A model generated the notes under the pieces. The model was not told the origin of the DNA, searched no databases, and worked only from the letters and a program-made list of their open reading frames with translations. 44,354 bases of DNA, from sequence record OZ035776.1. One strand, given 5' to 3'. Source of the DNA: Vectrevirus LF31P3. Positions 9,598 to 10,212 of the stretch are shown piece after piece (the first letter of the stretch is position 1; every line of letters starts with the position of its first letter). Position numbers and translations under genes: made by a program.

Positions 9598-9812
9598 TTC
9601 TGAATAACCGTGAATTGTCCATTCTCTTCACTCTGTTATGCTACATGATTCGTAACAACGAATTACTTACAGATGACGAGTTGGCACTGTATCACCGCTT
9701 TATTAACGAAGGTTGGACCGATACAGTTAATCAATACCGTAACATGATAGATGAGTTGAGGGGGGGGGGGTTAAATAATGTAGCAACTTGTGTTATTATT
9801 GGAAACAGCTAG
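9594..9812 (+). CDS. hypothetical early protein (C-terminus runs through the G11 tract and the duplicated unit)
   Basis: 72-aa ORF; the 3' end is probably altered by the homopolymer/duplication anomaly. Confidence 0.4.
   Translation: MILNNRELSILFTLLCYMIRNNELLTDDELALYHRFINEGWTDTVNQYRNMIDELRGGGLNNVATCVIIGNS
9760..9770. repeat. G11 homopolymer
   Basis: Eleven consecutive G read directly. Confidence 0.9.
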
Positions 9813-9885
9813 CGAAGAATTTCGCGTCCGTGATTATATGAGGCAAGCTGGTGTTGGGGTGGATTGGTATCACTATTTGATAGAT
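9773..9885 (+). repeat. unit A: diverged 113-bp duplicate of the 5' end of the downstream acidic-protein gene, with TAG at codon 2
   Basis: Manual alignment to 9983..10095 gives about 18 mismatches in 113 positions; begins aaataATGTAG versus aaataATGTAT in the intact copy. Confidence 0.8.
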
Positions 9886-9982
9886 CCCCCCCCCCCCCCC
9901 CCCCCCCCCCCCCCCCCCCCCCCCCCCCCCCCCCCCCCCCACCCCCCCCCCCCCCCCCCCGCCCCCCCCCCCCGCCCCCCCC
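9886..9982. repeat. poly-C tract (97 nt; interrupted at 9941 a, 9961 g, 9974 g)
   Basis: Read directly; the first uninterrupted run is 55 C. Confidence 0.9.
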
Positions 9983-9987
9983 AAATA

Positions 9988-10212
9988 ATGTATCAACATG
10001 AGGTATTCTTTGAATCAGCTAGCGAAGCTATTCGCTTCCGTGATGATATGATGCAAGCTGGTGTAGGCGTTGATGTGTATCACTATTTGATAGATTACGA
10101 CACTGAATATCACCGAGTTACCTTAGTATCTGAGTATGACAACCAAGTCGTTACTGAGTATCTAGGCAGTGAAGATTACGATTACGATGAAGTAATCACG
10201 ACAAATCTCTAA
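9988..10212 (+). CDS. small acidic early protein (74 aa, D/E/Y-rich)
   Basis: ATG at 9988; intact copy of the duplicated unit. The track ORF 9790..10212 would prepend a polyproline stretch translated from the C tract. Confidence 0.5.
   Translation: MYQHEVFFESASEAIRFRDDMMQAGVGVDVYHYLIDYDTEYHRVTLVSEYDNQVVTEYLGSEDYDYDEVITTNL

Follow-up and report, generated by a model that had tools for sequence, protein, structure and literature searches.

A second gene start between G and C homopolymers in the genome record of Vectrevirus LF31P3 is very probably a product of sequencing and assembly

Layout of the block between early genes 1 and 2

Does the early region of Vectrevirus LF31P3 truly hold a homopolymer of almost one hundred bases next to a second, damaged start of one of its genes, or did this arrangement originate during sequencing and assembly? 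The question was raised by a first-pass annotation of the record OZ035776.1 (44,354 nucleotides, here called the window), which described a run of eleven G, a 113-bp unit, a 97-nt C tract with three interruptions and an intact gene start homologous to the unit. Each of these elements is indeed present. Together with the neighboring genes, and with the readings that are argued for below, they are arranged as follows:

9594..9759, plus strand: genuine part of early gene 1, homologue of K1-5 gp1, phrog_9275
9760-9770 and 9771-9772, plus strand: G11 and TT; native G-rich end of gene 1 with the Shine-Dalgarno sequence of gene 2, in which about four additional G and one additional T were probably called
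9773-9885, plus strand: 113-bp unit, very probably a noisy second reading of the start of the gene 2 region (corresponds to 9983-10095)
9885..9886, no strand: presumed junction of contig end and contig start, based on the rotation of the record and a Logan contig that starts inside the tract
9886-9982, minus strand: C tract of 97 nt, poly-G on the antisense strand
9983..10212, plus strand: genuine gene 2 with an AAATA leader; CDS 9988-10212, 74 aa, phrog_6403

The C tract consists of 94 C and the three interruptions A9941, G9961 and G9974, which leave runs of 55, 19, 12 and 8. When the unit is aligned without gaps to 9983-10095, exactly 18 of the 113 positions differ, in agreement with the earlier manual estimate of about 18. 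The intact copy begins at 9983 with the ATG of gene 2 at 9988, and the amber codon reported for the upstream copy was confirmed (codon 2 reads ATG TAG in the unit and ATG TAT in the intact gene). Outside the block the whole 44,354 bases contain no other C or G run of at least 7 and no A or T run of at least 8, and the 113-bp pair is the sole long repeat in the window besides phage promoters and terminator hairpins. Both the homopolymers and the repeat pair are far beyond chance. A scan for promoters and terminators revealed nothing associated with the block.

Taken literally, the phage DNA would hold G11-TT, a partial and diverged second gene 2 and a long stretch of poly(dC), possibly as a contingency or linker locus. 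We consider such a real insertion very unlikely, but parts of the layout speak for it: the two copies lie in frame with a period of 210 bp, and G11 and the C tract are able to pair (z = -3.0). The order G(n)-insert-C(n) also resembles a doubly tailed fragment, and both copies start at the same native coordinate, directly after the G run, as would be expected from a chimera formed during library preparation (by homopolymer tailing or by PCR template switching at the G/C run) which was then faithfully sequenced and assembled. No adapter or primer sequence adjoins the tracts, and this origin is likewise improbable for the reasons given below. A junction left from dG/dC-tailed cloning in clone-based sequencing, which had been named as one source of the layout, shares the G(n)...C(n) polarity and nothing more. 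It is effectively refuted by the flanks, which are contiguous phage sequence with no PstI site or vector sequence on either side; moreover, 97 nt is far above the length of a cloning tail (about 10-30 nt), and the data are a recent read-based assembly which is also present as an ENA run.

Genomic context and consequences for genes 1 and 2

The window is a complete, circularly permuted genome of a K1-5-like Vectrevirus (Autographiviridae, Molineuxvirinae). The block lies among the early genes, with gene 1 (phrog_9275) on one side and gene 2 (phrog_6403) on the other, neither of which has an assigned function. Window position 9431 corresponds to position 710 of K1-5, which places the start of the record about 8.7 kb from the natural left end of K1-5. 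The first and last bases of the window coincide with those of unannotated sibling ENA records entitled "Vectrevirus ... genome assembly" (OZ0357xx), of which T147P1 is the closest with 98.6% identity over the right half. The record is thus a circular permutation of a linear genome.

In relatives gene 1 ends with ELR(E/G)GK, and its TAA stop codon overlaps the ATG of gene 2. If the block is taken at face value, this C-terminus changes to ELRGGGLNNVATCVIIGNS followed by a stop codon, and the TAATG coupling of the two genes is broken. The intact gene 2 is then preceded by poly-C where the GGAGGG ribosome-binding site belongs, and the copy which keeps the ribosome-binding site, the unit, is the one with the amber at codon 2. 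A real insertion would therefore disrupt both gene 1 and the ribosome-binding site of gene 2. Natural forms of gene 1, with 58-60 aa or 73 aa, are found on hundreds of contigs. The frameshifted 72-aa form (9594-9812) is a singleton cluster known from this record only and is absent from Logan, which again does not favor a real insertion. The first 113 nt of the gene 2 region (from 9983) are 100% identical to K1-5 and T205P4.

Upstream of gene 1, window 9460-9597 holds an extra small early gene of 45 aa (31 aa from an internal ATG; phrog_2061). It is present in K1E and in fTuEco01-like phages and missing in K1-5 and T205P4. In K1-5-like phages gene 1 has the first ~14 codons of this gene (MYAVVNYLLNE...) joined to it in frame, which accounts for the 73-aa forms. 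This pattern looks like mosaicism of the early region.

The block is absent from relatives and sequence collections

The first-pass annotation had proposed a comparison with related genomes, and this gave a uniform picture: the unit and the tracts are absent from all relatives examined. The native junction, in which GAGTTGAGGG(A/G)GGGT runs directly into AAATAATG, was found in 17 of 18 relatives, the 18th being K1E with an extra gene at this place. K1-5, T205P4 and fTuEco01, for instance, all read GAGTTGAGGG(A/G)GGGT followed by AAATAATGTATC. Among 16 fetched loci the native junction was present in 15, the exception again being K1E, which has gene 1.5 at the site. A later table of 18 alleles, all with the direct junction, comprises 17 with GGGAGGG and one with G7 (T205P4), and the C tract occurs in none of them. 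Compared to the relatives, the block is a net insertion of about 215 bp.

The best database match of the unit reaches 84.1% and is to the same allele as the intact copy of the window itself; the phage records contain no match above this value and no genome with two copies. A 31-mer specific for the unit and both junctions of the tract gave 0 matches in IMG/VR and the JGI metagenomes, where the native junction, used as positive control, was found. Four sibling assemblies show no C or G run of at least 7. They also lack exact repeats of at least 25 nt, which were sought as untrimmed k-mer overlaps from which the k of the assembler could be read off, and this search was uninformative.

The block is therefore unique to this record. 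A gene duplication or pseudogene would be expected in relatives or independent isolates, where no second copy was detected, and a tract recurring at variable length, as in a contingency locus, was not seen either, the relatives having only GGGAGGG (17) or G7 (1). The absence of the block from every relative and collection searched also weighs against a real insertion. Judged from these alignments, the true layout would be gene 1 ending in GAGTTGAG-G(n)-T and leading straight into AAATAATG of gene 2.

The differences in the 113-bp unit are base-calling noise

The 18 differences between the unit and the intact copy comprise transversions only (T>G 6, A>T 4, G>T 3, C>A 2, T>A 2, C>G 1). Between natural gene 2 alleles and the allele of the window, 20 transitions and 4 transversions were counted, whereas the unit has 0 and 18, respectively (Fisher p = 2e-8). 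The distribution over the codon positions is 6/5/7 in the unit compared to 3/1/12 in the natural alleles, and none of the 18 differences coincides with a natural variant of gene 2. Neither the transitions nor the third-position bias of a naturally diverging duplicate or pseudogene are thus visible.

In two-channel sequencing chemistry one label marks C and the other T, while A has both and G neither (PMC11140927). On such instruments a loss of signal leads to excess G calls, and substitution errors are provoked by poly-G (PMC10415152). It follows from this code that every transversion is a change in one channel, and every transition a change in both. Ten of the 18 miscalls are identical to the next true base, where 5.0 are expected (P = 0.001), and these miscalls to the next base are found at 10 of 65 sites with a transversion partner but at 0 of 28 sites with a transition partner. 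We then used a leakage model that lets each channel of a call be taken from the true base or from the one after it, and compared this model with three null models. Two-channel leakage accounts for 17 of the 18 differences, compared to 9.6-12 expected (P = 0.0002-0.001). The result is identical on either strand. Offsets of -2, -1 and +2 were not significant, nor was a positional trend of the errors along the unit (P = 0.22).

The divergence of the unit is thus base-calling noise and not evolutionary: its spectrum is noise-like and fits the two-channel logic. It is the signature of a cluster that is one cycle out of synchrony after a disturbance, which also accounts for the change from G7 to G11 and from T to TT at the start of the unit. 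The unit is probably a single dead-end read tip at a former contig end rather than a separate segment of DNA. The earlier statement that about 18 differences in 113 positions exclude a trivial recent duplication is therefore misleading.

Several alternatives were tested against this spectrum. A transversion-only pattern that tracks the neighboring base indicates base-calling instead of mutation, and in a real insertion one copy would have to be 16% diverged while the other is 100% identical to K1-5. Faithful sequencing of a library chimera would not give 16% errors that follow two-channel leakage from the neighbor. One could also imagine a perfect tandem duplication around a real homopolymer, with only the 18 differences being read noise. 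This would reconcile noise-like differences with poly-C in the reads, but it requires an unprecedented homopolymer of ~100 nt in addition to an artefact; no such duplication or tract exists in any relative, and a perfect 113-bp repeat at full coverage should out-compete a noisy copy in the assembly. We regard its chances as slim. Acquisition of a natural gene 2 allele via recombination was ruled out, as the best match is the window's own allele with 84.1% and 0 of the 18 variants are natural. Mutagenesis of the DGR type, with a pair of template and variable repeats, was ruled out as well, since the changes are not restricted to adenines: in the true sequence the mismatched positions are 8 T, 4 A, 3 G and 3 C.

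The length of the C tract follows the k of the assembler

If one follows the antisense strand out of gene 2, the sequence continues from CATTATTT into G8 C G12 C G19 T G55. The homopolymer is thus G on the strand that leaves good sequence. Its interruptions thin out with distance from gene 2 (8, 12, 19, 55); these stray calls are blips in a single channel, and exactly 55 G follow the last of them. A k of 55 is a common final setting of assemblers (the SPAdes defaults are 21, 33 and 55). At this k, an edge of the de Bruijn graph that runs into the self-looping vertex G^k as a dead end produces exactly such a terminal run.

An independent assembly was available from Logan for ERR12949686, apparently the phage's own run; the two were linked through exact identity of proteins and DNA and not through metadata. 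The 294-aa, 117-aa (Ocr) and 31-aa products of the window have exact protein matches in this assembly. Its contig ERR12949686_0 (5151 bp) corresponds to window 9953-15103 and agrees with it at 5149 of 5151 positions; the two exceptions are G9961 and G9974, which are absent from Logan. The contig starts with exactly 30 C, i.e., k-1 at the Logan k of 31, followed by AAATAATG. As it starts inside the tract, the independent assembly has a contig end exactly at this site. Logan has its pure run directly at the gene 2 boundary, with 30 bases (k-1), while the terminal pure run here has 55. The length of the tract is thus set by the k of the assembler in two assemblers and is not a property of the DNA. 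Neither a real insertion nor a library chimera predicts a tract length that tracks k, and for a real insertion the G interruptions should also have been reproduced.

However, C30 is the sole predecessor of the gene 2 start in ERR12949686_0, and Logan did not recover the native junction from these reads. That Logan kept C30 means that at least two reads contain poly-C joined to AAATAATG. Such k-mers in the raw reads, together with the missing native junction, speak for a real insertion, as the Logan contig would look no different if a long tract were truly present; a junction seen in at least two reads would equally fit a library chimera. Even so, the chance that a long poly(dC·dG) tract exceeding the k of the assemblers and a second gene 2 start are truly present in the phage DNA appears very small. 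If they were, this would be a hypermutable homopolymer insertion unprecedented in Autographiviridae. A milder variant is more likely than this, though still less likely than not: in this isolate the native G run, and nothing else, may be truly lengthened or variable in length (G11 or more), enough to stall sequencing. An expanded G run would toggle the C-terminus of gene 1 and the translational coupling of gene 2, and may be the one real residue at the gene 1/gene 2 junction.

On the other side of the block, contig ERR12949686_1 ends at 9613 and not at the G run, which is a point against the artefact reading. Two bases past this break lies a position that is polymorphic among relatives: T9615 is a C in K1-5, T205P4, fTuEco01 and K1E. 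Another contig break of the same run lies at 15103, where no repeat explains it. The breaks at 9613 and 15103 suggest a mixed population or low coverage in ERR12949686. A contig for 9613-9953 was not found in this run by look-up of the 72-aa and 140-aa products, by a search for gene 1 homologues or in the cluster listing; P0105 comes from an unrelated run. A deletion between CCGTGA microhomologies (9608, 10040) was discarded as cause of the break at 9613, as ERR12949686_0 is unbroken at 10040.

The related run ERR11799287 gave one contig of 44,043 bp, in which the junction is native and gene 1 has 59 aa. In the Logan contig ERR11799287_1767, from a sibling phage, positions 1990-2016 (window ~8535-8560) read GCCC-T-C13-TATGGGG in place of the native GCCCCCATATGGGG (C5), and one CTCGCC repeat unit is missing at the same site. 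This is a second unusual lengthening of a C run, located in the GC-rich terminal region of this phage group, and could be a real homopolymer variant or an artefact of the same kind.

A possible route to the artefact

Taken together, the block 9760-9982 is very probably an artefact of sequencing plus assembly and not a genomic feature. Of the either/or that was left by the first-pass annotation, the artefact side holds, in its version of a chimeric assembly of poly-G artefact reads, while the version of dG/dC-tailed cloning does not. The details of the route, namely the type of instrument, the k of 55 and the end-to-end fusion, are what we infer from these patterns.

In the proposed route two-channel reads, in which G is the absence of signal, would have failed at the G run in both directions. 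Antisense reads would have given GATACATTATTT and then dark cycles called as poly-G, which is poly-C on the plus strand. In a sense read the G run would have been over-called to G11 and the T doubled, and the read would have continued out of synchrony, with signal from the adjacent base flipping one color channel at a time and producing the transversion-only copy of 113 nt of the gene 2 start. The assembler could then have returned a single linear contig with dead-end tips at both ends. One tip would be the reverse complement of poly-G leading into gene 2, which stopped once the last k-mer was G^55. The other would consist of gene 1, the over-called G run and the noisy sense read, stopping at the end of the read at 9885; a 150-nt read that starts at 9736 would finish exactly there. 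The last clean stretch of the noisy read, with 19 nt, would be too short at k = 21 to rejoin the true path. Finally, the pipeline may have taken this contig for a circle and shifted its origin to the common start of the series, by which GATAGAT was butted onto CCCC. Such a fusion of end to start would give the apparent G(n)-copy-C(n) layout, and no read across the junction of 9885 and 9886 would be needed.

Illumina reads normally pass through runs of G7 to G11, which counts against this route. The true G run of this phage may be longer or heterogeneous in length.

The block as a polyproline gene or contingency locus

The ORF 9790-10212 (140 aa) crosses the C tract as a proline-rich stretch, and it had been noted that the tract would thereby encode a polyproline linker between two homologous half-domains. 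The proline-rich read-through exists, but only residues 67-140 of this ORF match phrog_6403. A polyproline-linked two-domain protein was ruled out on this ground and on account of the GTG start without ribosome-binding site.

The suggestion of a contingency/linker locus found no support: the block is absent from relatives, gene 1 is frameshifted, the ribosome-binding site of gene 2 is removed and the details of the tract are irreproducible. In addition, changes in length would not switch between functional frames, since gene 1 is truncated or frameshifted, codon 2 of the unit is amber and the ribosome-binding site is lost.

Comparison with known systems

Contingency loci are phase-variable poly-G or poly-C tracts in Neisseria, Haemophilus and Campylobacter. 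Real tracts of this type have about 7-20 nt, are found again with differing lengths in independent isolates and switch between functional products. The locus described here is similar in having a G/C homopolymer at a gene boundary, the native GGGAGGG or G7 spanning the end of gene 1 and the ribosome-binding site of gene 2. It differs in its tract of ~97 nt, which occurs in one record only and has a length set by the assembler. Long, nearly pure poly(C) tracts with occasional interruptions are known from the 5' UTR of cardioviruses and aphthoviruses (EMCV, FMDV). Unlike the tract in the window, these belong to RNA viruses, have been confirmed as conserved by many independent sequences and have no duplicated gene start beside them. 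To our knowledge nothing comparable to these poly(C) tracts exists in DNA phages of the Autographiviridae.

The block further resembles dark-cycle poly-G of two-channel Illumina or MGI instruments, with G on the strand leaving good sequence, an abrupt start and blips that thin out. As in poly-G over-calling, all accompanying errors are single-channel flips under the published encoding (PMC11140927, PMC10415152). Poly-G tails are normally trimmed, or clipped as tips; here, in contrast, such a tail seems to have survived through its place at the end of a contig, before the fusion.

Among ten T7-like phages assembled from short reads, 7 of 10 had spurious repeats of ~79 bp, and most of them were shown by Sanger sequencing to be artefactual (PMC10438801). 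These cases are similar in that they concern Autographiviridae and a false short direct repeat which results from the handling of contig ends in the circular assembly of linear genomes. However, the published repeats lie near the terminal repeats, whereas the break in the window is ~1 kb inside the genome at a G run, and here the two copies, one of them a noisy read, stand on either side of a homopolymer.

Consequences for the record

A public Vectrevirus record thus appears to hold about 215 bp of sequence that does not exist, which is a matter of quality control with little biological weight. The false block frameshifts one early gene, creates a fake "polyproline" ORF of 140 aa and a fake pseudogene, and strips a conserved gene of its ribosome-binding site. 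Such blocks can seed false claims of contingency loci or duplications and can contaminate protein databases, where the 72-aa product already forms its singleton cluster. A corrected record would have the true G(n)T in place of 9760-9982. The combination used here, transversion-only differences that fit two-channel leakage from the neighboring base and a terminal homopolymer equal to the assembler's k, can serve as a diagnostic on other records without access to the reads.

Other features of the window

Identical sigma-70-like promoters (TTGACA-17-TACATT) are located at 9252-9280 and 10221-10249, each followed after about 150-30 nt by a conserved CCGCTCTTTAACAAT motif (9430-9446 and 10277-10295). 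Promoter and motif form a repeated intergenic module on both sides of the gene 1-gene 2 cassette. At least nine phage promoters of the SP6 type (ATTTACTGGACACTATAGAAG) are present in the genome. Palindromic TTGTCTCACATGTGAGACA elements, which form terminator-like hairpins, were found at 9168-9198, 15256-15286, 17472-17506, 18616-18650 and 39869-39903. Just inside the natural left end of the genome, the non-coding stretch 8892-9021 contains imperfect, CTTAGT-rich tandem repeats with a period of 23-24 or 48 and 2-4 copies.

Finally, the closest relative, T147P1 (OZ035797), lacks an equivalent of window 6037-8134, although identity on both sides of it reaches 94-99%. This region encodes the C-terminal part of a 727-aa tailspike (matches to Pect-lyase/Peptidase_S74 in Logan loci) and is probably the result of a swap of a host-range module.
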